In this document: positions 4,654-48,270 of the stretch, piece after piece
Numbering within the stretch: position 1 is the stretch's first letter
How the letters are laid out: every line of letters starts with the position of its first letter
From: a virus
Strand: one strand, 5' to 3'
Length of the DNA: 64,000 nucleotides
Virus record (IMG/VR): IMGVR_UViG_3300025639_000003
Translations under genes and position numbers: made by a program
Notes under the pieces: model-generated
Database searches by the model: none
What the model was told of the DNA's origin: nothing
The model's input: only the letters and a program-made list of their open reading frames with translations

Positions 4654-6372
4654 TTAATAGTTAAATTCATATTTTAATCTTGCATTTCGATCATTGTAAT
4701 CTACGGAACTCCCCAACATCCTCCCTTTATTATTAGTTATATTATTCAATTCAATGTTAAATTTATGATTCGGATAAGGTGAATAGACGTAGCCTATATC
4801 AAGTTGCGAATACCCATCATTATGATCTTGTATTCTAATATCCGATGTATCTTTTTTTGGAAGTTTTTGCGCTTGCATCCCCCACCGATGTGTAGCATAG
4901 AAATTTTTATATTCTACCCGAGTATCAATTTTTAATGGAGTCAATTTCGAGATATAATCTAAATTGGTTTCCCCATATAAGTATTCTGCGAATACATCGA
5001 ATGCGAAATCGTCACGAGTATACTTTAAATTAATATTAGAACCGTGGATATATCCTGAATCCGCATTATCTACTTTAAATTTATATTCCCCAAATTCATC
5101 AAGAACGTCAGATGGAACTCTAACTATCAAGTCATCTAGATGTGTAGAAAATATTGAAGCATTAATGTATTCTGAATTGAATCCTAATACATACTTTACA
5201 GATCTTTCTTGTTTAAGATTTTGGTTAGGGATTTCGGTAGCAGAATCAGATATAGCTTCAGACAAATTTGGAACGGTCGGATATTTAAATCCTTCAGAAA
5301 TAGATGCATATATACCTTTATACTCTATTCTAGCACCCATATTGAATGAATCAAAATGCTTATCAAAATTATTATACCCTGACCCAGATATTACGGTATA
5401 GTCATATAATGCAAACGCAGAATAATCAAAGTCTCCCCAATAGTTCCTATAATTTACATCAAAGGAATTAGAAAAAACTTCATAATCTGTAGTCAGTCCT
5501 TTATTATCATATTCAATTAGTTCAAGTTTGTGGTCGGAACCTAATGTTAAGTTTAGTCTATTATAATAATATATACTATTAGCCTGAAATATATCATTAT
5601 CAGTTTCTACATATTTACCTTTTTTGTTGATCAACTCTGAAAAGTTATTATAAGATAAATTTAGATCAAGGTTATCTAAATAAAAAGTCTTATATGCTCC
5701 CGTGAAATACTGTTCCTCATACACATAATGTTGTCCATTTTCAAATTTATCAGTCCTATCAATATCATCTGACCTTGAATGTATAAACTTAAATCCTTTA
5801 TATTCAAGATACCCAGCTTTTTGGTTATAATTAGAATGCGGATTATTATCTACGCTGTAAATATTATTAAATACTGCTCCCAATGATAGGTCGCCATTAG
5901 TATATACTAATGATCTATTTCCATCAAATTGTTCAGAATTTACTGTATCCCAATCTATTGAAAATTTAGATTCATTAATTCCAAGTTGCCTATTAACTGT
6001 CCCGCCTAATGAATTATTGTCTAATACATCATCGATTGATATTGCCGTGACAAATTCGTCAGGAATAAACGAATAATATTGATTCGGTCCAGACCTGAAT
6101 AAAGAGTTGGTGAAATCTATTCCGTCTAATTTTAGTAGAATTTTATCGCCTTGAAGTCCCTTTACGATAGGTTGTTTAAATCCTGGAGTTGTCGCTTGAA
6201 TTTGGACATTTCGATCTTCAAATAATTCTACTTTAGGAGTGTGCACTAAAGTAGAATTATGACTATCATATTGTATTACTATAGGATTTAATTCTTCTTC
6301 TCCGTATACCGATATTGGTAATATTAATAATAATACTTTAGTTATTTCTCTTATTCCCAATGGCGTCACCAT
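4654..6372 (-). CDS. TonB-dependent receptor-like outer-membrane protein
   Basis: Signal peptide; plug motif PIVKGLQGDKILLKLDG...FRSGPNQY; EGFKYPT; amphipathic strands; C-terminal YEFNY. True start may be near 6360. Confidence 0.85.
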   Translation of the reverse strand: MVTPLGIREITKVLLLILPISVYGEEELNPIVIQYDSHNSTLVHTPKVELFEDRNVQIQATTPGFKQPIVKGLQGDKILLKLDGIDFTNSLFRSGPNQYYSFIPDEFVTAISIDDVLDNNSLGGTVNRQLGINESKFSIDWDTVNSEQFDGNRSLVYTNGDLSLGAVFNNIYSVDNNPHSNYNQKAGYLEYKGFKFIHSRSDDIDRTDKFENGQHYVYEEQYFTGAYKTFYLDNLDLNLSYNNFSELINKKGKYVETDNDIFQANSIYYYNRLNLTLGSDHKLELIEYDNKGLTTDYEVFSNSFDVNYRNYWGDFDYSAFALYDYTVISGSGYNNFDKHFDSFNMGARIEYKGIYASISEGFKYPTVPNLSEAISDSATEIPNQNLKQERSVKYVLGFNSEYINASIFSTHLDDLIVRVPSDVLDEFGEYKFKVDNADSGYIHGSNINLKYTRDDFAFDVFAEYLYGETNLDYISKLTPLKIDTRVEYKNFYATHRWGMQAQKLPKKDTSDIRIQDHNDGYSQLDIGYVYSPYPNHKFNIELNNITNNKGRMLGSSVDYNDRNARLKYEFNY

Positions 6373-11006: not shown

Positions 11007-11594
11007 CTATTTTAGTTTTTCTTTAAACATTGAAATTTTCATCCCAATAATGTTTTTTGCTTCAATAACTCTTAATCTACTACTGCAACTGTCCGGAATC
11101 ACAAAAACGAAAAGTATATCAGGGTGCTGGCTAGCAAACCATTCAAGATAATTAATTCGGTTATAAATGTCGTCAGCATTACTCTGAGTGTGTTCTTCAT
11201 AATTTTGTGTTCCTTTATATATATTATCTAAAGAACGGTTTCCTGAAATAATAAAATCGAACCCTAAACAATATATTAGATTATAGTTTCGGGATATTGC
11301 TTCCCGCATAGCCACCATACCTGCGTTATTTCTACGACCAGTTGTTTCTTCCCACCTTTCTTTTTCTGGAGGAAAAATTACTGAATCTATATCAATTTTG
11401 TCATAATTATTTTTTATTTCATCTTCCATGCGTTGATCTATAGCGACTAAATAATCATATCCGTCCCATTCTCGATATAATGCATTACACCCAAAAATAG
11501 TTCCCTTACCTTTAAGTGTATCTAAGTCGATATCTTTTCTAGACGGTCCGTTCCCCAATACAATTGCTACTTTTTTTCTTTTCACGAGCATCAT
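11007..11594 (-). CDS. MptE-like/DUF115 or sialyltransferase-like Rossmann protein
   Basis: AIVLGNGPSR, IFGCNALYR, YCLGFDF. Confidence 0.55.
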   Translation of the reverse strand: MMLVKRKKVAIVLGNGPSRKDIDLDTLKGKGTIFGCNALYREWDGYDYLVAIDQRMEDEIKNNYDKIDIDSVIFPPEKERWEETTGRRNNAGMVAMREAISRNYNLIYCLGFDFIISGNRSLDNIYKGTQNYEEHTQSNADDIYNRINYLEWFASQHPDILFVFVIPDSCSSRLRVIEAKNIIGMKISMFKEKLK

Positions 11595-11724: not shown

Positions 11725-12158
11725 TTACTCCAATGTTCAGTCAATTTTGGAAAAGCGTCACACACCAACTTTTTAGTCAATCCTTTATATGGAAGTTTTC
11801 CATTTCTCATACCAATAACTATTTTGGCGTCATTAGGATTGAGCGATTCTAGCATCTGAATATAAAGAAATTCGCGACGTGAAGTTTTTAAATTTTGTTG
11901 TGTTGGGCTTGGTCCTTCAACGAAAATATAAATTCTTCGTAGTTCCGAAGACAGTCCAATTTCCCCATCACTATTTTCGGACAATGGCTTGTATGGAGGA
12001 TCTCCTTCAGGGAGCAGCCATTTAACACTTGGGTCGAAAGTTGAACCCAAAATAATTTTTAATGCAGGACTACTACAATTATGAAGGATGGCGATTTTTT
12101 CTTTTTTGGATTTCGCTTTCCCCACTTCAGTAAAAATTTGATGGAAATTGTTATTCAT
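11721..12158 (-). CDS. Conserved T4-like protein (DUF6433-like)
   Basis: WLLPEGDPPYKP, REFLYIQMLESL; next to rnh. Confidence 0.65.
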   Translation of the reverse strand: MNNNFHQIFTEVGKAKSKKEKIAILHNCSSPALKIILGSTFDPSVKWLLPEGDPPYKPLSENSDGEIGLSSELRRIYIFVEGPSPTQQNLKTSRREFLYIQMLESLNPNDAKIVIGMRNGKLPYKGLTKKLVCDAFPKLTEHWSK

Positions 12159-13031
12159 CTAAAATTCTCCAATACAATCAGTTAAGTTTTTTAATCTATT
12201 TTTAATAAAGTAGTTTAAAAGACCGCTACGTTTGGGCGCATTATAATTCTTAAATTGATCAAGAATTTTAATAGATATTTGGGGCGGAACATATTCCAAA
12301 TCAACTAACGCTTCATTCCGCTTATAATTTCTAAGCATATCATCGTTGCAGAAATGTTCAGGCTCTAATTCTACCCAAGTTTCAAGTTTCTTTGTTGATA
12401 CAGGTTTTTGTCTTTTCTTATTAATTATACATGAATCTTCCGAAAGAAAATTCGGTATACCATCACCACGATCTCCTCGCATAATATGCTCACGAAGGAA
12501 ACGTCTAGGATCGTCAACAACAATCCACTTTTTTTGCATTGGACTATATTGTTTTACATTAGTATATTTTTGAAGTTGACAAAAGTCTTTATCCCCAGAA
12601 ACAATTAATATTTTTTCAACGTCATCATTATTTAAATACACCCCATATTCCTTTGATATTACGCCAATAATGTCATCGGCTTCAGCACGTTCAACTTGAA
12701 TCACCCTGTATGGAAAATATTCTTTAATTTCATCTCTAATCTTATTTAATGCCCCGAAAATTTTATTCCAATCATGCGTAGACTTGGACCGATCTTCCTT
12801 TCGGTGAGCCTTATAATAAGGGAAGATGTCCTTTCTCCAATAGTTTTTATCATCACAAGCAATCACTAATTCGCCGTATTCTGCCGAAAATTTTTGACGA
12901 TACATGCGAATAGAATTTAAAATCATATGCCTGACAAGATTTTCTTCTACTTCATCATTTTGATTTAATTGCATCATTATGTTACTAATAATAACTTGAT
13001 TTAAGTCTAAAATTATCATAAAATTCACCAA
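12159..13031 (-). CDS. rnh: T4-type RNase H / 5'-3' exonuclease
   Basis: IACDDKNYWR, FPYYKA, EADDIIG, SGDKDFCQL, GDRGDGIPN. Confidence 0.95.
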   Translation of the reverse strand: MVNFMIILDLNQVIISNIMMQLNQNDEVEENLVRHMILNSIRMYRQKFSAEYGELVIACDDKNYWRKDIFPYYKAHRKEDRSKSTHDWNKIFGALNKIRDEIKEYFPYRVIQVERAEADDIIGVISKEYGVYLNNDDVEKILIVSGDKDFCQLQKYTNVKQYSPMQKKWIVVDDPRRFLREHIMRGDRGDGIPNFLSEDSCIINKKRQKPVSTKKLETWVELEPEHFCNDDMLRNYKRNEALVDLEYVPPQISIKILDQFKNYNAPKRSGLLNYFIKNRLKNLTDCIGEF

Positions 13032-13050
13032 TTATTGTAATTAATAATAT

Positions 13051-13079
13051 ATCATACTATACATTAGGGTAAAAGTAAA
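13051..13079 (-). promoter_or_regulatory. Sigma70-type promoter TTTACT-N17-TATGAT for rnh
   Basis: Hexamers with 17-bp spacer. Confidence 0.65.
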
Positions 13080-13090
13080 TCGCCTTTCAT

Positions 13091-13117
13091 AAAAAAATGG
13101 GGGACAACCCCCCATTT
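13091..13117 (-). terminator. Rho-independent terminator
   Basis: AAATGGGGG/CCCCCATTT stem followed by a T-run on the minus strand. Confidence 0.8.
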
Positions 13118-13144
13118 CTACATTCCTAGAACAGAAATTGATCT

Positions 13145-13477
13145 CTATTGTTCGAAATTGTACTGATATTCAACAAATAATGCGTCACCGATTTGATCGC
13201 GACCTTGAAACACATCCCAAGGAGCAGATAAATCGTTTTGCTGATATGCAGCTGTTAACTGATGCGCTTTAGAACCAACATATGCTGTGCCAAATACACG
13301 TGCATAGTTGTTATTGTTCTGACCAGACCAAAATTCACCAAACTGATCCATGTCTTGATTCCAACGAAAACCAGCTGATTTCATTTTTAAAGCAAACCCA
13401 CTATCATGATCGGCTGCCATTAGAGGGGCAGACATAATAGCGAACATTGTTACTAATAACACTAATAATTTCTTCAT
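13145..13477 (-). CDS. Secreted beta-rich protein of unknown function
   Basis: Signal peptide MKKLLVLLVTMFAIMSAPLMA; C-terminus LFVEYQYNFEQ. Confidence 0.65.
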   Translation of the reverse strand: MKKLLVLLVTMFAIMSAPLMAADHDSGFALKMKSAGFRWNQDMDQFGEFWSGQNNNNYARVFGTAYVGSKAHQLTAAYQQNDLSAPWDVFQGRDQIGDALFVEYQYNFEQ

Positions 13478-13572
13478 TTTTTCTAATACCTTTTCTTAAT
13501 TGCAATTAATATAAAACATGTTTTATTCTGACATAAAAAAAGTTACATCAGAATATATATATAGGGGTTTCA

Positions 13573-14172
13573 TTACCCCACGGAATTACATAACCCTTTA
13601 TCGTATGCATCTTTCTGCTGCTTCAAACCAGTATTAAGAGCAGTTACCGTAGCACCAGAATCAATCTTAGCGGCAAAAGGATGCTCTGATTCTTCATAAT
13701 CACGTTGAACATCACGTGAAGAAGGAAGACCCATTACAGCATTATATAATGCTTCTTTTGTTGCTTCATAGTTATACTGCTGAATTAATGCATCATCAGT
13801 TGCATTCCAATGAATGAAAACTCCAACCGTGATAAATAGGTCATCTGCTTCAGAATCAAGAATTACGCCCTCTTGAACAGAATCAGCAATAGCCATAGAT
13901 ACGCCACGTTGAGCAGGACCGAACATCTGTACTGCTTGTGCCCCTTTCTTAATAGTAACTTTATTGAACATAACAGTATTTGGTTTAACCATTAAGTTCG
14001 GTGCTACTACTGCTAAAAGAGATGTAAACCCATCTTTATTGTTTACTAATGCATTAGCAAAAGCTGTTTCTACTGCTGAACCTCTTGGTCCAATCATTAA
14101 ATCAATGTGAGCAACTTCATTGCCCTCGCCCACTAATGACTCTCCTACACACAAATTTGTTATTCTGTTCAT
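13573..14172 (-). CDS. fae: Formaldehyde-activating enzyme (H4MPT-dependent)
   Basis: [73 protein letters not shown]. Confidence 0.95.
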
Positions 14173-14175
14173 TTA

Positions 14176-14346
14176 TTATCTATCCTCTGTTAAACTATCT
14201 AATTGAAAGTATGTGCATATATGATCATTTTCATACTGCCTAAGTTTGTCCTTTGCTTCTTTATATGTGTTGAATTTTTCACGTCTTACTTCTTCGCCTG
14301 ACTCACCTTGAACCCAATAGGATGTGAGTAAGTAAAAGTATCCCAT
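14176..14346 (-). CDS. Small hypothetical protein
   Basis: Manual ORF MGYFYLLTSYWVQG..., 56 aa. Confidence 0.45.
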   Translation of the reverse strand: MGYFYLLTSYWVQGESGEEVRREKFNTYKEAKDKLRQYENDHICTYFQLDSLTEDR

Positions 14347-14885
14347 TAATATTTTCCTCCCCTAGAATCATTTGATTGATGCGATCCCTTTCCCATTTCT
14401 TCCGTCCAAGTCATTTTAATGTCCGAATAATATACGCCTATCGTTCGTTTGGGGTTTCCTTCAGAATCGTAAGCCATAGCTATGCAATTATATGTAACCG
14501 CACATTCTTGATTTTCCCCATAAAATAGATCTATATATGTTCCACCACTAATATACTTTTTAAGATTTCTAATATATTTCTCGAGGGAATTGACCTTTGC
14601 TATTGCTTTATTTGCAACCCTCTTTTCCGGACTTTTTAAATTTTTTCGTTCCTCAGCCAATTTTCCCTCAGACGCTGATATATACCTTTTTATATTTTTC
14701 AATGATAGTGCGTTATCATCATCTAGGTCTAAGACCCTCTTAGCCACGTTCTTCGGAGGATTAGCTTTAGCACGTATTTCCCTTGCTTTAGCCAAACGTT
14801 CGCCTGCTGCAGCTTTTTGTTCTTCGCTCATTGGCTTGCGTTTTTTACGTTTTTTTGGTATAGTTTCTATCGGTAATGTATTCAT
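14346..14885 (-). CDS. Conserved T4-like basic protein
   Basis: RKPMSEEQKAAAGERLAKARE; MAYDSEGNPKRTIG. Confidence 0.65.
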   Translation of the reverse strand: MNTLPIETIPKKRKKRKPMSEEQKAAAGERLAKAREIRAKANPPKNVAKRVLDLDDDNALSLKNIKRYISASEGKLAEERKNLKSPEKRVANKAIAKVNSLEKYIRNLKKYISGGTYIDLFYGENQECAVTYNCIAMAYDSEGNPKRTIGVYYSDIKMTWTEEMGKGSHQSNDSRGGKY

Positions 14886-14892
14886 AATTCAC

Positions 14893-15876
14893 CTAACTGA
14901 CTAATTGACGTAACATATTTTCCCATTCAGCCGCACGAAGATCCCAGTTATAAAAATTATCTACCCAATTTTTTTGATACACGAGTTTCTTATTTAAATT
15001 AGCATCTTTATCCAATATGCGTTGAATTGATGAATATAATTGATTCACAAACACATTAGCATGTTGTTGACTGTCCTCATTCCACTGGTACATTGTAGCA
15101 AAATTTCCAGTCGTTTCAGGTAATGCTGCATAATTAGGGCAAACTATCTCACACCCAGCACTCATTGCTTCTATTGCTGAAATGCAAGAAGTTTCTGGCC
15201 AAATACTAGGATAAGCAAAGATATGAGATGATTTAAGTGCCTTCCGAACTTCTTCATTAGGTTGATACCCATGATATGTCATTTGAGGATGATCTATAAT
15301 ATCTTGAAATAGCTTATCAAAAGGTTTGTCGCGTTCTTTCCATCCATATGCCTCAAATGAGGAATATACATCTAGATGAATCTTATCTCCAAATATTTCT
15401 GCTAATTTTTCAACCGCAGCATAAAGTATATTCAATCCTCTATGGGGAGTAGTATGATATATTAAACGAACAACATCACTGTCCTTATCTTCCATAGCCA
15501 CTTCAATAGGATCTATTGCATTTCTAAGAACTATAGATTCCCCATAGGTAACTCCATACGCCATATTATATGTTGCTAATTGATAATTTGAAACAAAAAC
15601 TAATTTATCAAACCGCTTTCGCCTATCACTATCATTTAAATGATTAGCTTCTGGGTCATCCCAAGTGTCATGTAACCAAAGAATATTTTTCTTATCGGGA
15701 TCTATAGTGCGAACACGAGACTTGATAATATGAAATTGGTCTAGCAATTCATTATCAACTCGTTCATGTAATCCTTTATTCATAAGTTCTGTTCCGCCCA
15801 TCGCACCGTCGTATGTACCATCGGCAGAAGGACCAAGTTCGACTGTCTCAGTGTCGTCTATGATATTTAAACTCAT
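14893..15876 (-). CDS. GT-B glycosyltransferase (GT4-like)
   Basis: MGGTEL, YHTTPHRGL, YPSIWPETSCISAIEAMSAG. Confidence 0.9.
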   Translation of the reverse strand: MSLNIIDDTETVELGPSADGTYDGAMGGTELMNKGLHERVDNELLDQFHIIKSRVRTIDPDKKNILWLHDTWDDPEANHLNDSDRRKRFDKLVFVSNYQLATYNMAYGVTYGESIVLRNAIDPIEVAMEDKDSDVVRLIYHTTPHRGLNILYAAVEKLAEIFGDKIHLDVYSSFEAYGWKERDKPFDKLFQDIIDHPQMTYHGYQPNEEVRKALKSSHIFAYPSIWPETSCISAIEAMSAGCEIVCPNYAALPETTGNFATMYQWNEDSQQHANVFVNQLYSSIQRILDKDANLNKKLVYQKNWVDNFYNWDLRAAEWENMLRQLVS

Positions 15877-16121
15877 TGGATATAGTCCACGCTAGATATA
15901 GAATCTAATCTAAAAGATCTCCACCCATGTTGTTCTAAATCCCACACTGCCAACACTTCAGGATTTTCTTTTTTGGATCCATCACCTTTAATTTCAGGAA
16001 CTATGCCTTCCTTTAAAGTGCATCTCATAGATCTAGTAGTGCCGTCTACTTTGGTGAATAGCACTGCAGCTTCACCTGTTGTTAAGTATTTTTTCAATTC
16101 ACTTTTATTATATTTCACCAT
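15873..16121 (-). CDS. SH3-fold/WYL_2-like small protein
   Basis: FTKVDGTTRSMRCTL, VWDLEQHGWRSFRL. Confidence 0.75.
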   Translation of the reverse strand: MVKYNKSELKKYLTTGEAAVLFTKVDGTTRSMRCTLKEGIVPEIKGDGSKKENPEVLAVWDLEQHGWRSFRLDSISSVDYIQ

Positions 16122-16858: not shown

Positions 16859-18571
16859 TTAACTTTTTTTAGTGTCATATGCAACTTGCGTTATGAACCA
16901 AGAAAACCAATTTTTATACGAAATTACTCTAGCAGATTCGTCGTCATTAATAACTTTACGCCATGTTCCTTCCAAATCGTTGATATCACCTTTAATTACA
17001 GCATTCTCGTAATCACATTTACCAAATACTACAACTGGACGCTCATATAGCATTGCTTCTTGCCCTGTTCCACTGTTTATACTATACACAGCAAGAGCAT
17101 CGGCAATCATAGAATTGATAGGATAGTCTAAATGATATTCCACATTAGTGTATGATTGTATAATTTCTACTAATGGTTCCATCGATTTTTTGTTAATAGG
17201 GTGACCTTTAAATACTACCTTTATCCCACTAATTTCTGCCCATTCGCACATTGCTTTAACCAGTTCAGGAACAGTTATGTTCGAATGATACTTGATGGTT
17301 TCGTCGTGGGGAAGTTGTAAAGGAACCAACACATAAGGTTCTTCATGAGACCAATCATTATTTCCCTGTAAATGTTTAAATTTAGTCCCGCCAGCTTTAA
17401 CATATTTTTGTAATTTTTCAAATTCCTTGTCATTCCCATATTCGATTTCTGGCGAATAATTATTTTTATATTCAGACCCACCAAGATATCCTATCTTATC
17501 TATAGTAAAAATCCACGGGAAAACGGTTTGCATATAATATCGGACATTATTGCCCCCACCCCACCACGACTTTTCAACATGAGGAGCGAATATTATTTGA
17601 TCGGTAAAATATTTACAAATCGTATCATTGAAATGCCATCTAGGTGCTTCAATAACTAAAGTATTCAATTCTTGTTCATTTTTCTTTTCTACAAAATTCG
17701 ACCAATGTTTGCGAATAGGCTCATTCACTGAATTTTCGATTGATATTTGTTTCTTGAATGGGAGGTCGAGACGTGGTTTTAATATTACATTAGTATAACC
17801 TTTTCCAATTCTATGATCTAGTTTATTCCAGCGTGCCTTTTCGGAAACGTATTTTTCATTATCATACTTTCGAGATCCTTTCCCTGTCCATATTGACGTT
17901 CCAGATTTAAACTCCCAATCCAGAAATGTCGAATCGAACTCATGTAATATGTCATCTGGGTCAACTTTAGTGGTGCTCATTAATTGGTCTATAATATGAC
18001 TTAATGCTATTTGATCATTAAACCAGCGTACAGGCAATCCTTCTATAGTTGCAGAAACCGCTTCAGCTACATTCAATGCATCAATATTATAATATACTGC
18101 TCCAGCTGCAACTTTCATCCCTTGCCGTTCCCAATTATTAGCAGCATCAACTTCACCTTTACGTGGAAAATACCCTACAGGGAGATCGGGAAATTCGAAG
18201 TCATTCATAATTAAACAATCAATATCAAGTATCATCACTTTATTTGCCGTTTTCAAAACATGCGGTGCTACAGCAAATCTAGTGCAGGCATAATATGCAC
18301 GTTCTTGTTCGGAATCAAAATCATTAAACGCAAAATCATGAAAAGAATACGTTACTCGCTTATGTGTCGTCGATGACAATATTGCGGCTAATGACAACAC
18401 ATCGTTTGTCGGGTTTACAATATGAATATGAACGTCAAACTTATGATCGGTTGCAGAATATATAAATGATGGAGCATGTTCTAAAAAATATTTTGAATCG
18501 CATGCAGCAAAAACTACAGGCGATGTCGGAAATTCTCCATATAAACTCATGTCAATTTTCTCACAATCCAT
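16859..18571 (-). CDS. Two-domain glycosyltransferase with a C-terminal KpsS/KpsC-like capsule-synthesis domain
   Basis: N-terminal ILDIDC (DxD); C-terminal VPLQLPHD, FKGHP, INSGTGQEAML. Confidence 0.75.
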   Translation of the reverse strand: MDCEKIDMSLYGEFPTSPVVFAACDSKYFLEHAPSFIYSATDHKFDVHIHIVNPTNDVLSLAAILSSTTHKRVTYSFHDFAFNDFDSEQERAYYACTRFAVAPHVLKTANKVMILDIDCLIMNDFEFPDLPVGYFPRKGEVDAANNWERQGMKVAAGAVYYNIDALNVAEAVSATIEGLPVRWFNDQIALSHIIDQLMSTTKVDPDDILHEFDSTFLDWEFKSGTSIWTGKGSRKYDNEKYVSEKARWNKLDHRIGKGYTNVILKPRLDLPFKKQISIENSVNEPIRKHWSNFVEKKNEQELNTLVIEAPRWHFNDTICKYFTDQIIFAPHVEKSWWGGGNNVRYYMQTVFPWIFTIDKIGYLGGSEYKNNYSPEIEYGNDKEFEKLQKYVKAGGTKFKHLQGNNDWSHEEPYVLVPLQLPHDETIKYHSNITVPELVKAMCEWAEISGIKVVFKGHPINKKSMEPLVEIIQSYTNVEYHLDYPINSMIADALAVYSINSGTGQEAMLYERPVVVFGKCDYENAVIKGDINDLEGTWRKVINDDESARVISYKNWFSWFITQVAYDTKKS

Positions 18572-18726
18572 TCACCATTTCCGCCATCGACCCATTCAAC
18601 TACATCCCCTGCTTTCCAATTTAAGCTATCCATGAGTTCGTCCGGAAACGTTATCATTAATTCCCCATCGTCGTCTAAGGTAATAGGGATTATGTGACTT
18701 TCTTCGTTCTTAATATGTATGCTCAT
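18547..18726 (-). CDS. AbrB/MazE-like small protein
   Basis: Manual ORF ...GELMITFPDELMDSLNWKAGDVVEW. Confidence 0.6.
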   Translation of the reverse strand: MSIHIKNEESHIIPITLDDDGELMITFPDELMDSLNWKAGDVVEWVDGGNGEWIVRKLT

Positions 18727-19590
18727 TTACTCACCTTTTGTTGTATCAAATCCATTACTTGCTGTATAGCCTTGTTGACTTTCTTTATTATACCCTGTCC
18801 AAGTGCTGGAGTCAAGTGAATAATAATCTTGCGGAGACATTCCCGAATCTAATGCCTCAAAATACATAGCATCAAACAATTCTTGAACGTCGGGTCGTCG
18901 ATGCTCACGAAATGTTCCATCAAACCAATGACTACGACCTTCCGATTTTAACCTTGGAATAAAATACTTACTATGCGGTTGGGTACTCATATCAGTATAA
19001 TGGAGAATCTTAATATCTTCAAGTTTATCATTTTCCCCATCAAAATTGTTCCATTGTCGGTTAAAGGTTTGTTGGAGGTGAGGGCGTTTTTTGAGTTCTT
19101 CGAATAATAGTTGATGAGCATAAGGTTCGGTTTTCATCACATCAACTTTAGGCAAAACAGTCTTTGCTCTTCTACAATCCCACTTAGCAACACAAGTTCT
19201 CCACCCACCTTTCATCATAATAATCTCTCCTCCAACATAAGCCTGCCTGAATGGTTCATCCCACAATTCAGCTAAGTCGCCAAGAATAATCATATCGGAA
19301 TCCATGTATATAGCTTGACCCTTAAAATCACATGCTTCAGGAATCGCCCAACGAAACCCAGAAAAAGGTGTCGCCCAAGTTTGGCTATTCCAACCACCCC
19401 AGATAGAATCCGGATCATTATTATGCTTCATCCATGTAATGTCGATAGGGAGACTGCTATTTTTACGAGCTGTGTATTCCAGCACCATTTGCGATTCAGC
19501 ATCTTCTCCGTTGGGGGCGACCCCAACATAAAGTTTGATTCTGGTCCCGTCCGTCATTGCGTTACAATCATTGTTGCCGATTGAAACCAA
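18727..19590 (-). CDS. GT-A glycosyltransferase (GT8-like)
   Basis: TPFSGFRW, AIYMDSDMIILGDLAELW, ILHYT. Confidence 0.85.
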   Translation of the reverse strand: MVSIGNNDCNAMTDGTRIKLYVGVAPNGEDAESQMVLEYTARKNSSLPIDITWMKHNNDPDSIWGGWNSQTWATPFSGFRWAIPEACDFKGQAIYMDSDMIILGDLAELWDEPFRQAYVGGEIIMMKGGWRTCVAKWDCRRAKTVLPKVDVMKTEPYAHQLLFEELKKRPHLQQTFNRQWNNFDGENDKLEDIKILHYTDMSTQPHSKYFIPRLKSEGRSHWFDGTFREHRRPDVQELFDAMYFEALDSGMSPQDYYSLDSSTWTGYNKESQQGYTASNGFDTTKGE

Positions 19591-20216
19591 CTTCTACTTA
19601 TCGGAATAACTTTACGATTATATTTATCGAGCCATTCGTTCAATGCTTTCCATTCATGATCTGGCCATTTAGGGTATAGTACACGTTTTGCATCATTTGG
19701 CGGAGTTGCTTCAGTAAACGCATGACGCCAACAACATAACTCATCAAACCTAATAATAGTTCCTTTTACGATTTGGGTATTGCATTCTTCTAAAATTGTA
19801 GTTGCGCTAGAATATATATCGGAATCAATATGGAGATATGAGATGTCTTCTTTATGATTATTTAAAAATTTAGGTAACGTCTCATTAAACCACCCCTTAT
19901 ATAATTCAACATTATCGGGGACTTCTGGCAATTCACCCTCACGATCAAATGCCTCTTTTTTTACCGTTTTATATCCCATATCCCAATCTTCAGGTAATCC
20001 AGTAAATGAATCGAACCCATGAAATTTTAAATGCGGGAGTAAATTAGCTACACAAGATATAGTCAACCCACTATGAACACCAAATTCAATATTAAGTCCC
20101 TTGAGTGGGAGATATGATGCTATCCAAGTCAACTCGCGAATCCGAACATCATCAGTAGTGGTATCAGTTGGTAGAAATTTAAATTTTTGTATATTTTGAA
20201 ATTCTGTAATCTTCAT
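19554..20216 (-). CDS. TylF/MycF-like SAM-dependent O-methyltransferase
   Basis: IEFGVHSG, GFDSFTGLPEDW, LHIDSDIYSS, FDE. Confidence 0.85.
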   Translation of the reverse strand: MKITEFQNIQKFKFLPTDTTTDDVRIRELTWIASYLPLKGLNIEFGVHSGLTISCVANLLPHLKFHGFDSFTGLPEDWDMGYKTVKKEAFDREGELPEVPDNVELYKGWFNETLPKFLNNHKEDISYLHIDSDIYSSATTILEECNTQIVKGTIIRFDELCCWRHAFTEATPPNDAKRVLYPKWPDHEWKALNEWLDKYNRKVIPISRSWFQSATMIVTQ

Positions 20217-24357: not shown

Positions 24358-25041
24358 CTATTTTTCCGTGAATGTCTTGGATAAAGGAAATATCTGAGCA
24401 ATCACTTCTGCACAAGCAACAGCTATATCAATATGCTCCTTTTGAGTCCCATGACCTGCTCTAAGGTCTATATAATGTATCCAAGAACGTAGGGTTCCAT
24501 TCATATATAATCTAGACTTAGTTAATCCTTCTGGCAAAATTGCCCGTGCTTGTTCTTTCGCTATACCCACATCAATTGCCCAATTATATGAATCTTTCAC
24601 TATATCTAAAATTTCTTTTTGTTTTATTTCCCAAATACGTTTAATTTCGTCATCCTTAGTTTCAATCGAGTTTTGTCTATTGCTCACATCTTGTAGCCTT
24701 GCTTCACGCAATTCAAAATCCAAATCTTTAGTTGGGTCGGCATATCGCTGGGAGAACTCTTGAAACGAAAATGATCTATGCCTCAAAATTTGCCTCGCAA
24801 TATCCCGTGTGGTTTCAATTTCAATGCAAGCTGAAGCCATTTCTAATGGCGACCAATGTTTGTGCTTGATTAAATAATTTATCAATTTTTCCGACGTTTC
24901 TTTGTTCAGCTGATTGCTTGGGTTTGATACACGTGCGCAGAATGCAACGAGGTCTTGAACATTATCAAGTCCCTGATCAATCATACTTTCCGAAGGCATG
25001 CTGTATGAAATTAAATTCACTTCCATTATATTTTTCTCCAT
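24358..25041 (-). CDS. thyX: Flavin-dependent thymidylate synthase
   Basis: HWSPLE, RHRSFSFQEFSQRY, GTLRSWIHY. Confidence 0.97.
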   Translation of the reverse strand: MEKNIMEVNLISYSMPSESMIDQGLDNVQDLVAFCARVSNPSNQLNKETSEKLINYLIKHKHWSPLEMASACIEIETTRDIARQILRHRSFSFQEFSQRYADPTKDLDFELREARLQDVSNRQNSIETKDDEIKRIWEIKQKEILDIVKDSYNWAIDVGIAKEQARAILPEGLTKSRLYMNGTLRSWIHYIDLRAGHGTQKEHIDIAVACAEVIAQIFPLSKTFTEK

Positions 25042-29428: not shown

Positions 29429-30430
29429 TTAATCTACCTTAGATTTTATTTTGGGAGTTTCATTTTCAATTTCTTCTAGAATACCATCTAAATGCGCATA
29501 AAAAACTTCAACCACCATAGGATCAGTTTCCCAATCAAATGCGGATTCAGATTTTCCCCTTGCCGCTTTGAGTCGAGCAATTTCAGCCTTGCGAATTTTA
29601 GGTAACAATTTTTTAGCAATTTTAGGAATCGCAGCTGCTTTTTTGTCTACCAACTTATCAATCGCGATTTTCTGTGCGGTTGCTAATTTAGCATAATCCT
29701 CACCTTTATCTCCGGCAACTTTTTTACGCAATATATTTTTTGCTGCCTTCTTAGCACGATCCATTAATTTATCTGTATCCGCCATACGTTTAGCAGAAAC
29801 TTTCTTTTTACGCTGGAGTTTTGCTGCCATTTTTTTCATTAAACGTGATCGCATCATACGTTGTCTAGCATCTAAGGCTTCATTGATATTTTCTTTTTCC
29901 ATAATACTTCTAACCTCATTGTATATTTTTTTTGCTGATGATTTAATTTTTTTAGGGAGACCTGATTTAAATGCATTTAGATCTCCTTCCTTTGCTGCGG
30001 TTCGCATTTTAGAAGCAGACATGCCCTCTACGCCCTCCGCATCAGGATCCCTTTCCCCTGCAGACATAATTCGAATTGAATTGAATTTATAATCCTTTCC
30101 GTTATATTTTTTAATGAACCCCATACTTGATATTCTATCCGACCCAACAATCATAATAACGTCAGTATACCCTTGAGCCTCAAGTTCTTGAAGAATATCA
30201 ATAGGTGTTCGTGCATCCGACTTTACAACAATCTTACCAAATGCAGTCGACGCATATTTAAATTTTGAATTATAATCTAGTGGGTCTTTTTTGTTATTTT
30301 GGGTGTGAGATAAATATAGTTTAGAATCTGCATTATTCTTCTTAGATACAGAATCAACTTTATCTACTAATTTTTGATGCCCTATCGTTGGAGGATTCAA
30401 TCTACCGAACGCAAATACAACTTTTTTCAT
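29429..30430 (-). CDS. HIGH-family nucleotidyltransferase (cytidylyltransferase-like) with basic C-terminal domain
   Basis: FGRLNPPTIGH, VGSDR, SAGERDPD, MSASKMR. Confidence 0.85.
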   Translation of the reverse strand: MKKVVFAFGRLNPPTIGHQKLVDKVDSVSKKNNADSKLYLSHTQNNKKDPLDYNSKFKYASTAFGKIVVKSDARTPIDILQELEAQGYTDVIMIVGSDRISSMGFIKKYNGKDYKFNSIRIMSAGERDPDAEGVEGMSASKMRTAAKEGDLNAFKSGLPKKIKSSAKKIYNEVRSIMEKENINEALDARQRMMRSRLMKKMAAKLQRKKKVSAKRMADTDKLMDRAKKAAKNILRKKVAGDKGEDYAKLATAQKIAIDKLVDKKAAAIPKIAKKLLPKIRKAEIARLKAARGKSESAFDWETDPMVVEVFYAHLDGILEEIENETPKIKSKVD

Positions 30431-30512
30431 ATGGAATCGCCTAAAATATTACTTTACTTGTGGTCAACATAACGGTATAATTAGGATGCCGCCTGTTAAA
30501 TATATGTTCAAG

Positions 30513-30520
30513 TATTTATA
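30513..30520 (-). promoter_or_regulatory. T4-type late promoter TATAAATA
   Basis: Exact consensus upstream of 30430. Confidence 0.6.
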
Positions 30521-30529
30521 AAATTAACG

Positions 30530-31561
30530 TTATACTATAAACGTTGATACTCCAGCAATTGATAATAATAAGGCTACCCACATCATTAATGCCATATAAT
30601 ATGTTGAATATGGTGTCCCGAAATATCTATTACCTAAAAGTACACACTTATGAGTCGGGGATATAAGGTATGCAGAGTAATCTACAGCAAAGAACCATAA
30701 GAAATATTCAATCCCAAATATTTGAGCCATCAATACTGCTATAGCAACAAACTTCCCACTAGACCCCATCAAAAAACTAGAAACGAATCCAATAGCAGTA
30801 ATCCCAATCATACCAAATATATCATTAGGATCTAAACCTATATTAATAATATTTTCCTTAAATTCATTATTATAGGTTTGAAAGAATGCACTACAAATGA
30901 TAACAACACCAACAATAAGTAAAACGTCAATATTAATATAATCTAAAAGTTTCTTTGGACTCCACGTGGAAGTCAACGCCATATAATATATGGCTAGAAC
31001 TCCGAATGTTATGTAGAAGTTTTCACTGAAAACATATCCGATAATTGCAGCAACCATCGGGAATACATCGCGAATTACAGCTAACCTATCAGGAGTAGTT
31101 TGTACAATGTTAATATCAGTTTCATCAATTCTACTCCAAATATACCAACCAATGAATAAAAATGTTCCAATCAAAAGAGGGTATATCTGAACTATCCATG
31201 CAGTGTATGAAATGCCAAATGTAGCAATAGGGATAATTACGGTTTTTTCTAACGGCGACCACATATAATAGTGGTGCGTTGCCAAATAATCTACTATTCC
31301 ATATTTTTGACGTTTCTTTGGGTCTTTTGGCGCAATCGTATCAAGTAATCCTGCCGATATAGTCACCCTACCAGATATTGGAAGTATTCCCCCAATCATC
31401 GATAAAATAATTAATACGATTTTATTACTTTTAAATATAGTTCTAATTAAGTTATATACTGGGGCGAAAAGGTTATGTTCCTTTGCGATCCCTGCTGCAA
31501 TCATAACAAATACAATCATCCATAAGTAATGTAATGATCCTGCAACTTCAATAAACTCCAT
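30530..31561 (-). CDS. Polytopic membrane protein (possibly ion-transporter superfamily)
   Basis: About 10 hydrophobic segments; GGILPISGR, SPTHKC. Confidence 0.7.
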   Translation of the reverse strand: MEFIEVAGSLHYLWMIVFVMIAAGIAKEHNLFAPVYNLIRTIFKSNKIVLIILSMIGGILPISGRVTISAGLLDTIAPKDPKKRQKYGIVDYLATHHYYMWSPLEKTVIIPIATFGISYTAWIVQIYPLLIGTFLFIGWYIWSRIDETDINIVQTTPDRLAVIRDVFPMVAAIIGYVFSENFYITFGVLAIYYMALTSTWSPKKLLDYINIDVLLIVGVVIICSAFFQTYNNEFKENIINIGLDPNDIFGMIGITAIGFVSSFLMGSSGKFVAIAVLMAQIFGIEYFLWFFAVDYSAYLISPTHKCVLLGNRYFGTPYSTYYMALMMWVALLLSIAGVSTFIV

Positions 31562-31589
31562 TGATAATCCTTCATAAATTATATTGGTG

Positions 31590-32816
31590 CTAACTCCACC
31601 CTTTAATCACATCACTACTGAAATTCGCTTTACTAAATTCCATTCGGTTGACTAGCTTCAATGCGCCACCTTTGCGGTCGATACCAACATATCCTTCAGG
31701 AGCAGTAACCTCAAAGCCGTTAACTGTCTTCAAGAATGTGCCTACCGTGCTCGCTTGATCTAGTTTAGCAATAATTATATCCTTTGCATCTATTATATAG
31801 TTCATCATCGTAAAGATGCCTTCTAGATTCTTTTTGTTAGCAGTAGAAAAATATTTCAGTATCTTATCTCGTTTATCGTATTGAACAGACTTCCCCTTTT
31901 CAGTTTTTCGTTTATCTGCCTCTTTTACATAAAATGCTGTAATATAATTGACAAGATCTTTTACATGTCTAGAAACGTTAGTAACTCTTTCGCCAGCTCT
32001 TACTTTCGTGTTATAATGGGTCTTAACTTTTTGTAATAAATCTGGATCATCAGATATCTGATTTAATGTAGATGCATCCAGTCTTTTAAACTGTTTACCT
32101 GCAGCAGAAAGTAATGAGGTTATTTTATCAGTTTCTTTTTTCGTGAACGTCGCCTTACCTGACACATCACTGAAATGCGCATCAACCGACCAAACATTTC
32201 GTGAAGTTGATAATTTGCCTGCAATATCTTTACCGAAACTGGCTGTCATATTTTCAATAGAGTCGCCAGTATAAGTGGTATGCCAAACAATACCTAATTT
32301 GCTTGAACGTATAGTTTTTCCAAGATCCGAAGAAAACGGAATAGTGTATACTATAGTATTTGGGTGGAATGTAATCATCTTTTCCCCCTCTATAGTTTCA
32401 GTCTTTAAGTCGTCTTTTGAATATAAAAAGTCGCCTTGATATACACCAGACGTGATACCCAACTCAGGGAGATGTTTGAGTGCAAGTTTAAGTTTAGATG
32501 CCAATTCCCCAGAAGTATCAGCATCAACATCATCATCTGACTTATAAAACTTTGGATTCTTAGCGAATAAACCTTTCTTGGCTACAAAAAATTCTCCATC
32601 AGCTGGATCGATACCAGCAAATACCGCAGGTGCGCCATCCCACTTTACTGTGACATTAACCGCACTATCCGAATTTCCCGCAAGCATATCACGAAGATTT
32701 CGTAAAAGGTTTATGGCATCTCTTGCACCATTAACCCCACCATTGAGAACTGCATCTTCTAGATGCTCCATATGAGTATTCTTTTGTTCCGTCAGGAAGT
32801 TGCTAAATTTTTTCAT
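31590..32816 (-). CDS. DUF6267-like protein with KxDG ligase-type motif
   Basis: THMEHLED, TVKWDGAPA, YQGD, EGYV, KLVNRMEFS; leader MKKFSNFLTE. Confidence 0.7.
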   Translation of the reverse strand: MKKFSNFLTEQKNTHMEHLEDAVLNGGVNGARDAINLLRNLRDMLAGNSDSAVNVTVKWDGAPAVFAGIDPADGEFFVAKKGLFAKNPKFYKSDDDVDADTSGELASKLKLALKHLPELGITSGVYQGDFLYSKDDLKTETIEGEKMITFHPNTIVYTIPFSSDLGKTIRSSKLGIVWHTTYTGDSIENMTASFGKDIAGKLSTSRNVWSVDAHFSDVSGKATFTKKETDKITSLLSAAGKQFKRLDASTLNQISDDPDLLQKVKTHYNTKVRAGERVTNVSRHVKDLVNYITAFYVKEADKRKTEKGKSVQYDKRDKILKYFSTANKKNLEGIFTMMNYIIDAKDIIIAKLDQASTVGTFLKTVNGFEVTAPEGYVGIDRKGGALKLVNRMEFSKANFSSDVIKGWS

Positions 32817-47556: not shown

Positions 47557-48270
47557 TCAATGGTCTCTACGTTTGTTGAACACACATATAAATAACAAAT
47601 CTTCATCGTCGCTAGTGTTGAATACTTTATGGTGCTCTCCGTCAGGAATAGTGAACGTTTTGCCTTTTTCAATAGGAAACGGTTTTCCTGATATTTCTAT
47701 AACACCAATCCCACTCAAGAACGTATACACTTCCTCCATTCCTTGATGACAATGCCCCTTTGTTTCTTGCCTTGGATGTAATGTGGTGGTAGAAACGGTT
47801 AAAGCATTCAACTCAGTATTGTCAATAATAGTATAAACTGCATCATCCTTTACAGTTGCGCCAGTTAGTGGCGGAGTTCCTTGATTTTCTACAACTTTCT
47901 TTTTAAGTCCATTAGAACTATAATTATGTTTTCGGGCATTATAATAAGTTTCTATGTTAAGGTTATCTCCAGTAAAATGTTTTCTTTTATAGTCTTCCCC
48001 TATAAATCTGATATCCGGAGTGACAAGTTTCAATAATTCTATCAATTCACTTTCATCATTATACGGAATGATCCTATCAACATATTTCACAGCTTCAAGT
48101 TGAACATATCTCTCAACTATACTTTGGACAGGATATCTACCATACTTAAACGGATTTACATTTAATCCACATATAAGATAATCACAATTTTCTTTACACT
48201 CTTTTAGCATCGCGATGTGCCCTGTGTGTAATAAGTCAAATGGACTACAAGTAAACCCTATCTTCATCAT
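47557..48270 (-). CDS. Sugar/glycerol-phosphate cytidylyltransferase fused to a cupin domain
   Basis: FDLLHTGH, GEDY, YSSNGLK; cupin HCH..MEEVY...HHKV. Confidence 0.85.
   Translation of the reverse strand: MMKIGFTCSPFDLLHTGHIAMLKECKENCDYLICGLNVNPFKYGRYPVQSIVERYVQLEAVKYVDRIIPYNDESELIELLKLVTPDIRFIGEDYKRKHFTGDNLNIETYYNARKHNYSSNGLKKKVVENQGTPPLTGATVKDDAVYTIIDNTELNALTVSTTTLHPRQETKGHCHQGMEEVYTFLSGIGVIEISGKPFPIEKGKTFTIPDGEHHKVFNTSDDEDLLFICVFNKRRDH

Follow-up and report, generated by a model that had tools for sequence, protein, structure and literature searches.

Does the gene for a formaldehyde-activating enzyme (Fae) that lies among the genes of a T4-like virus encode a working enzyme, does it truly belong to the phage, and does the phage gain from carrying it? 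The gene, fae, is part of a 64,000-nucleotide stretch of viral DNA (IMG/VR record IMGVR_UViG_3300025639_000003; hereafter, the window). Formaldehyde is the toxic hub of marine methanol, methylamine, and methylated-sulfur oxidation, and Fae, a homopentamer whose solved structure places the active sites between subunits, needs tetrahydromethanopterin (H4MPT) and is hence useful only where H4MPT is made. From comparisons of sequence, we consider it likely that fae encodes a working formaldehyde-activating enzyme (5,6,7,8-tetrahydromethanopterin hydro-lyase, EC 4.2.1.147) and is an auxiliary metabolic gene of an uncultured marine T4-like myophage of the Melnitz/pelagimyophage group.

We found that the phage protein is complete, rather than near-complete as the first-pass annotation had it. 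The NCBIfam equivalog-domain profile for formaldehyde-activating enzyme, TIGR03126, aligned over positions 2 to 160 of 160 (231.4 bits versus a cut-off of 118). The Pfam Fae profile, PF08714, aligned over positions 1 to 158 of 159 (E 2e-64; 216.7 bits versus a cut-off of 27), and the alignment with Methylorubrum (Methylobacterium) extorquens Fae (PDB 1Y5Y/1Y60) spanned residues 3 to 169 (E 2e-68). All four conserved blocks reported from the first reading are present (AHIDL at residues 21 to 25, QMFGPAQ at 82 to 88, VFIHW at 118 to 122, and HPFAA at 164 to 168). The M. extorquens AM1 enzyme (Vorholt et al. 2000) has the same motif blocks, and both proteins are stand-alone, single-domain enzymes of ~170 aa, but the phage Fae differs from it in a 30-aa C-terminal tail, the substitution R144N, phage-like codon use, and its phage genome setting. 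Residues H22, D24, Q88, F119, H121, and W122 are invariant in a 53-sequence alignment, and, of the 84 columns that are at least 97% invariant among the 95 cellular Fae proteins compared, 77 are unchanged in each of the 19 viral copies. The sole fixed change at family-invariant residues is R144 to N, which is found in all viral copies and lies in the C-terminal helical part of the protein; K129 varies among the viral copies, and there are a few single-copy changes at near-invariant columns. A GAGGA ribosome-binding site precedes the fae ATG by ~11 nt. The positions of fae and its neighbors are collected in Table 1.

Table 1. Features of the fae locus and its surroundings, in window coordinates
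Feature	Position (nt)	Strand	Details
RNase H/flap endonuclease (rnh), T4-type	12159..13031	-	PF02739 and PF09293; downstream border of the slot
Intrinsic-terminator-like hairpin after the 110-aa gene	13099..13112	-	5-bp G/C stem, then T run
110-aa secreted beta-rich protein gene	13145..13477	-	Last gene of the unit; signal peptide, then ~88 residues
fae, complete formaldehyde-activating enzyme	13573..14172	-	ATG start, 199 aa; Fae domain at residues 8-166, plus C-terminal tail
Phage-clade-specific C-terminal tail of Fae (residues 170-199)	13576..13665	-	Variable linker, hydrophilic helix at ~178-191, invariant end KGLCNSxG
56-aa ORF directly 5' of fae	14176..14346	-	Within the inserted block; 83% conserved in sister contig L001
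Conserved 179-aa phage gene	14346..14885	-	Upstream border of the slot; homologues before rnh in Melnitz (46%) and ~60 IMG/VR relatives
ThyX thymidylate synthase	24358-25041		In window

The C-terminal extension of ~30 aa noted at first reading is real, in that cellular Fae proteins stop one residue after HPFAA and the phage Fae is 30 residues longer. We found this tail in 19/19 viral copies versus 0/95 cellular Fae proteins. In an AlphaFold2 monomer model, its residues 178 to 191 form a helix, modeled at low confidence (pLDDT of about 45 to 60 for the tail and below 50 for residues 195 to 199), and the Kyte-Doolittle values of this hydrophilic helix average -1.2. The tail sequences show a lower pN than pS, and the invariant end holds a single conserved cysteine (C195). 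The tail motif was not found elsewhere in the 64-kb window, and a tail-only search of 1.84 billion representative proteins returned the clade itself and noise, with no meaningful match. Our best guess is that the tail is most likely a docking or regulatory peptide. A further proposal, tentative and not very likely, is that KGLCNSxG and its cysteine, held on a flexible arm, give the viral Fae a property missing from cellular Fae, such as docking to a host or phage partner or a tethered thiol that catches formaldehyde for the active site; assigning the conserved cysteine a role in formaldehyde chemistry is speculation. If the tail did confer such a property, the phage enzyme would outcompete or rewire host formaldehyde handling, rather than just adding more of the same enzyme. 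The fae gene is small and its product needs no partner protein; the tail poses a simple structure-function question.

Maximum-likelihood analysis placed the 19 Fae proteins from viral contexts in one clade (support of 100/99 in a careful search and an SH-aLRT of 99 in another tree), the stem of which measures 0.58 to 0.65 substitutions per site and attaches to the backbone rather than to any cellular family. Among 5.8 billion proteins searched, tailed Fae made up twelve clusters (197 to 200 aa, 81 to 95% identity), and the next matches were cellular Fae of 168 to 171 aa at no more than 76% identity. The tailed form was not found among 185,579 species genomes, where the best matches came from Methylobacter and Methylomarinum (74 to 75% identity); the phage protein is of the proteobacterial Fae type, at 70 to 75% identity. 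Pairwise comparison of seven viral genes gave a full-gene dN/dS of 0.05 to 0.12 at a dS of 0.6 to 2.1, and the core gave 0.03 to 0.11. Even viral copies with 94% amino-acid identity have diverged widely at silent sites, so the likeness of these copies reflects constraint and not recent exchange. The GC3 of fae (0.24) is close to the phage mean (0.285 +/- 0.047). Given that the viral copies form a single long-stemmed, tailed clade, with most near-invariant columns kept, low dN/dS, and phage-matching GC3, fae is an old, maintained accessory gene under strong purifying selection.

A Methylococcales or methanotroph link of the phage Fae had been suggested from the sequence at first reading, and the data allow it but do not single it out. 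When the viral clade was forced to group with Methylococcales, p-AU was 0.79 and the tree was 11 log-likelihood units better than the quick free tree; when it was forced to group with the alphaproteobacterial group, p-AU was 0.37. Both origins therefore appear compatible with the AU tests, neither being rejected, and the viral clade stands on its own long stem.

Could the Fae fold have been kept while its function changed, such that the tail cysteine and R144N now suit the protein to H4MPT-free binding of formaldehyde or another aldehyde, to a different pterin, or to docking with a phage or host complex? Because the tail has no known counterpart, some change of function is possible, and the strict limitation of the tail to viral copies, the fixation of R144N, the long clade stem, and the absence of H4MPT from known hosts of the closest relative in culture (PMC6794327) would all fit such a change. 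However, the altered positions lie in the C-terminal helical part, outside the conserved motif blocks, while the near-invariant columns, motif residues included, are kept in every copy. The TIGR03126 equivalog score is twice its cut-off, and the dN/dS of the core fits an unchanged catalytic core. We regard a changed function as unlikely, and the conserved core argues for a working formaldehyde-activating enzyme.

The search of IMG/VR for viral fae that had been proposed at first reading found relatives on seven of 2.9 million contigs, and a search with near-universal Fae motifs recovered only these seven, without any further lineage of viral Fae. No Fae was found in deposited phage genomes by tblastn. 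Tailed Fae occurs only on contigs of at most 24 kb, the window's own source contig of ~135 kb apart. At its locus, fae shares a variable slot with the 56-aa ORF and the 110-aa gene, and a conserved phage gene borders the slot on either side. We compared this slot across 64 related IMG/VR contigs that have the order WYL2, glycosyltransferase, 179-aa gene, rnh, and DUF6433 and at least 1.5 kb upstream of rnh; 63 of the 64 have no fae in the slot, and only the window's sister contig has both fae and the 110-aa gene in the interval bounded by the 179-aa gene and rnh. The fae start lies 3 nt past the stop of the upstream ORF, and this short gap, together with the terminator-like hairpin after the 110-aa gene, suggests that fae, the 56-aa ORF, and the 110-aa gene may form one transcription unit. 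A second phage lineage (L002-L006), with backbone proteins 30 to 60% identical to those of the window, has fae ~3.3 kb from the 110-aa gene, adjoining lipase and PRPP synthetase genes, and the ORFs upstream of its fae are weakly similar to the 56-aa ORF.

We found the phage nearly whole in three runs labelled sediment metagenome and in partial matches in approximately twenty seawater or marine runs, metatranscriptomes included. Its depth in runs X1-X3 ranges from 50x to several hundred x. Marine metatranscriptomes, whose libraries may contain DNA, gave contigs of relatives (90 to 95% identity) that match a portion of fae as well as the 110-aa gene, the latter in two runs. Three further RNA runs contain some fae words, for which DNA carry-over is possible. 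Expression of fae is thus possible. In the sediment-labelled run X2, variant contigs at 13072-13339 and 13876-14143 reach word depths of 69 to 344, compared with 46 to 51 for the window phage. Because these extra variants of fae and the 110-aa gene are present at such depths, several fae-carrying strains bloom together in run X2.

The patchiness of fae, on so few IMG/VR contigs and at the slot in only one of the 64 relatives, is what would be expected of a passenger, a moron that entered a hyperplastic slot by chance, does not benefit the phage, and is in the course of being lost. Yet copies separated by a dS of 0.6 to 2.1 are still 81 to 95% identical in amino acids, fae is present in two lineages of phages with backbone proteins just 30 to 60% identical, its codon composition is fully phage-like, and several strains with fae are found at high depth in one sample. 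We consider this explanation highly improbable.

Independent assemblies place fae in the phage genome. The identical Fae in the same gene order was found on contigs from JGI 3300008253 (with JGI 3300008254 likewise), one of them 21 kb long, and in ENA ERZ511468. In an independent run, zero-difference contigs with a uniform 46- to 51-fold depth tile positions 12000 to 16000 and bridge the junctions between rnh and the 110-aa gene, between the 110-aa gene and fae, and between fae and the upstream ORFs. A chimeric assembly, which had been named at first reading as a ground for doubting fae, is effectively excluded, and a mis-binned piece of cellular DNA is similarly negligible: the contig of one relative (P0012), although filed with a 'Candidatus Thioglobus sp.' MAG, is a 4-kb phage fragment encoding Phage_DsbA, DUF3310, Prs, and an M15 peptidase, both fae junctions are crossed by the independent assemblies and the even-depth tiling, and the tailed form is on no contig longer than 24 kb except the window's source and in 0 of 185,579 species genomes. 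The claim of the first-pass annotation that fae is a genuine accessory metabolic gene of a T4-like phage is thus borne out by an intact ORF, phage genes on both sides, independent assemblies, and purifying selection.

What kind of phage carries the gene? In the 64-kb window, 90 of the 93 called ORFs are on the minus strand, at a coding density of 92%. The T4-like setting upstream of rnh described at first reading holds, with RNase H directly downstream of the fae unit and a T4-type replication and nucleotide module in the window (a split gp43, gp41, gp61, UvsX, the clamp loader gp44, the clamp gp45, gp46/47, NrdA, NrdB, CobS/CobT-like proteins, ThyX, PhoH, and a PDDEXK nuclease, in addition to RNase H). 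The core replication proteins are nearest to those of cyanomyophages (49 to 62%), and neither the window nor the locus has a nucleotide match among deposited phages. At the locus itself, the nearest cultured phage is the OM43 methylotroph phage Melnitz of the Methylophilales, to our knowledge the only cultured marine methylotroph myophage, which gave the best cultured match for RNase H (55%) and has common synteny. The description of Melnitz gives exactly the accessory set of the window (PMC9004378), and, like Melnitz and the pelagimyophages, the window phage is a T4-like marine myophage with nrdAB, bS21, rnh, PhoH, PDDEXK, a two-piece alpha-type tmRNA, and a slot running from the 179-aa gene to rnh. 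The order nrdA, nrdB, small ORFs, bS21, 179-aa gene, rnh, DUF6433, PhoH, PDDEXK, and two-piece tmRNA is common to both. In contrast, the slot of Melnitz is occupied by an unrelated 144-aa hypothetical gene, fae is absent from that phage, and protein identities between the two phages are 34 to 72%. Because a T4-type core is combined with the accessory set of the group (bS21, two-piece tmRNA, PhoH, PDDEXK) in the common order, we assign the window to an uncultured marine T4-like myophage of the Melnitz/pelagimyophage group (Kyanoviridae in the NCBI scheme), an assignment that draws on the genes in the 64-kb window, the structural genes falling outside it.

Several other features of this window were observed. 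The permuted, two-piece tmRNA lies at 44989-45551 on the minus strand (RF04321, 99 bits; RF01849, 60 bits) and encodes the tag AESNYALAA; its two pieces are separated by an unaligned insert of ~260 nt. The Melnitz ssrA has a glutamine riboswitch, and no riboswitch family reached threshold in the tmRNA region of the window. The gp43 DNA polymerase is split at 40830-41930 and 42266-43741 (minus strand) into ORFs of 491 and 366 aa that flank a 96-aa ORF, and both halves match PHROG families of split polymerases. Sugar-related genes are scattered over the minus strand at 11007-11594, 14893-15876, 16859-20216, 29429-32816, and 47557-48270, and they encode a CST-I-like protein, a group-1 glycosyltransferase, Capsule_synth, a TylF-type methyltransferase, cytidylyltransferases, and a cupin-cytidylyltransferase fusion, a set that hints at phage-directed glycan or nonulosonic-acid chemistry.

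Since Fae needs H4MPT, we infer that the host must make this cofactor, and a C1-oxidizing proteobacterial host is plausible. The OM43 clade, to which the Melnitz host belongs, and 'Ca. Methylopumilus' lack the H4MPT pathway (Salcher et al., PMC6794327), and fae may point to hosts of Melnitz-like phages in a group not yet recognized. Pelagic ocean waters do contain bacteria with the H4MPT pathway. The pathway is present and expressed in marine BS01 Methylophilaceae (PMC8262872) and also in an Arctic Thiotrichaceae population, and, among the genomes that we fetched, both Fae and Mch were found in a 36.8%-GC marine betaproteobacterial MAG (TMED82) and in a set of marine alphaproteobacterial genomes with 29% GC (one MAG, the others from single cells). 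When the phage bS21, pyrophosphatase, and UvsX were compared with five marine genomes containing Fae and Mch, we found at most weak matches and nothing to indicate DNA of an infecting phage. A companion C1 gene of the pmoC, xoxF, or mxaF type, which the first-pass annotation had entertained, was not seen among the scanned ORFs of the 64-kb window.

Three candidate host clues were considered and dropped. The two-piece, alpha-like tmRNA is of the same type in Melnitz, which has a non-alphaproteobacterial host, and comparison of the tmRNA tag with marine single-cell genomes did not discriminate among hosts. The 'Candidatus Thioglobus' label of P0012 belongs to a 4-kb phage fragment. A 572-aa protein encoded at 4654-6372 on the minus strand has no Pfam or PHROG match of its own, and its relatives at 36 to 42% identity carry a TonB-dependent receptor barrel domain; these relatives are unnamed, and the best long contig among them (331 kb) looks like a very large virus and not a cell. 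This TonB-dependent-receptor-like protein had no match among deposited phages.

How might a phage benefit from such an enzyme? In an infected, H4MPT-making cell, the phage Fae would condense free formaldehyde with H4MPT to give methylene-H4MPT, a reaction that opens the H4MPT oxidation route and is its sole step without a partner protein. Formaldehyde could thus be kept low during the shutdown of host gene expression, and the production of NAD(P)H and formate would be sustained. Formate could in turn feed the tetrahydrofolate C1 pool and, through it, the synthesis of purines and the reaction of the phage's own ThyX. Such a role would parallel those of psbA in cyanophages and pmoC in the phages of methanotrophs. 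A phage Fae under selection would imply that C1 flux in pelagic bacteria with an H4MPT route is altered by viral infection.

The pmoC phages are large freshwater phages of methanotrophs, with pmoC closely related to Methylobacter genes, according to the citations of Chen et al. 2020 in PMC9875498 and PMC10904782. As in those phages, a single gene of the host C1-oxidation chain is carried here, presumably sustaining energy flow during infection; unlike them, the present carrier is marine and T4-like, and its gene, which has no close host relative, encodes an enzyme two steps further down the chain. Viral fae itself has been met in metagenome surveys, on one marine-sediment viral contig for which Methylophaga or Pseudomethylobacillus was suggested as the donor (Zhong et al. 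2024, PMC10904782) and in a cold-seep survey that counts fae among viral auxiliary metabolic genes (Li et al. 2020, bioRxiv 10.1101/2020.09.08.284018). The main text of Cheng et al. 2022, cited by Zhong et al. for hydrothermal vents, does not mention fae. Whether fae had already been described in T4-like phages, a question raised in the first-pass annotation, can thus be answered with these surveys and with its absence from deposited phage genomes. The surveys and our study have in common that fae lies on viral contigs from marine samples, but the surveys list the gene only, whereas phage type, tail, selection, and distribution are described here. Because the three runs with the near-whole phage are labelled sediment metagenome, the marine-sediment contig of Zhong et al. 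may represent the same lineage as the window phage. That fae is a viral auxiliary metabolic gene was therefore known, and what is new is the tailed, phage-only clade, the Melnitz-like carrier, the anatomy of the slot insertion, and the selection regime. Our claim is a modest one, its value being the first characterization of a viral fae lineage.

The 110-aa gene is present in every fae-bearing viral locus, which made its product a candidate for an obligate partner of Fae. We rejected this idea on finding the gene in T4-like contigs that lack a neighboring fae, and it is therefore a group-typical accessory gene instead. The family comprises ten clusters of relatives, all unnamed and seemingly limited to marine T4-like phage contigs (L108-L115), and the protein has 35 invariant positions. 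Language-model features liken it to porins or outer-membrane proteins, which we offer as a lead only, and its structure model (pLDDT of 58) is too poor for a fold search.

The cellular fae loci yielded a separate observation. Beyond the TAG or TGA stop of alphaproteobacterial fae (L034:6001-6600, L085, L086, L079, L065, L060, L064, L068, L070, and L090), several loci have a conserved, in-frame extension of 27 to 47 codons, without a start codon and followed by a second stop; Methylococcales fae loci have no such post-stop extension. The extension encodes a Pro/Gly-rich linker and an amphipathic helix (e.g., ...GLLQRLAALLFGK or ...GGWLSRLFSFFKSK). Its peptide is conserved, with synonymous changes, across a range that reaches from marine genomes of 29% GC to soil genera of high GC, and these loci are candidates for stop-codon readthrough that would give a C-terminally extended cellular Fae.
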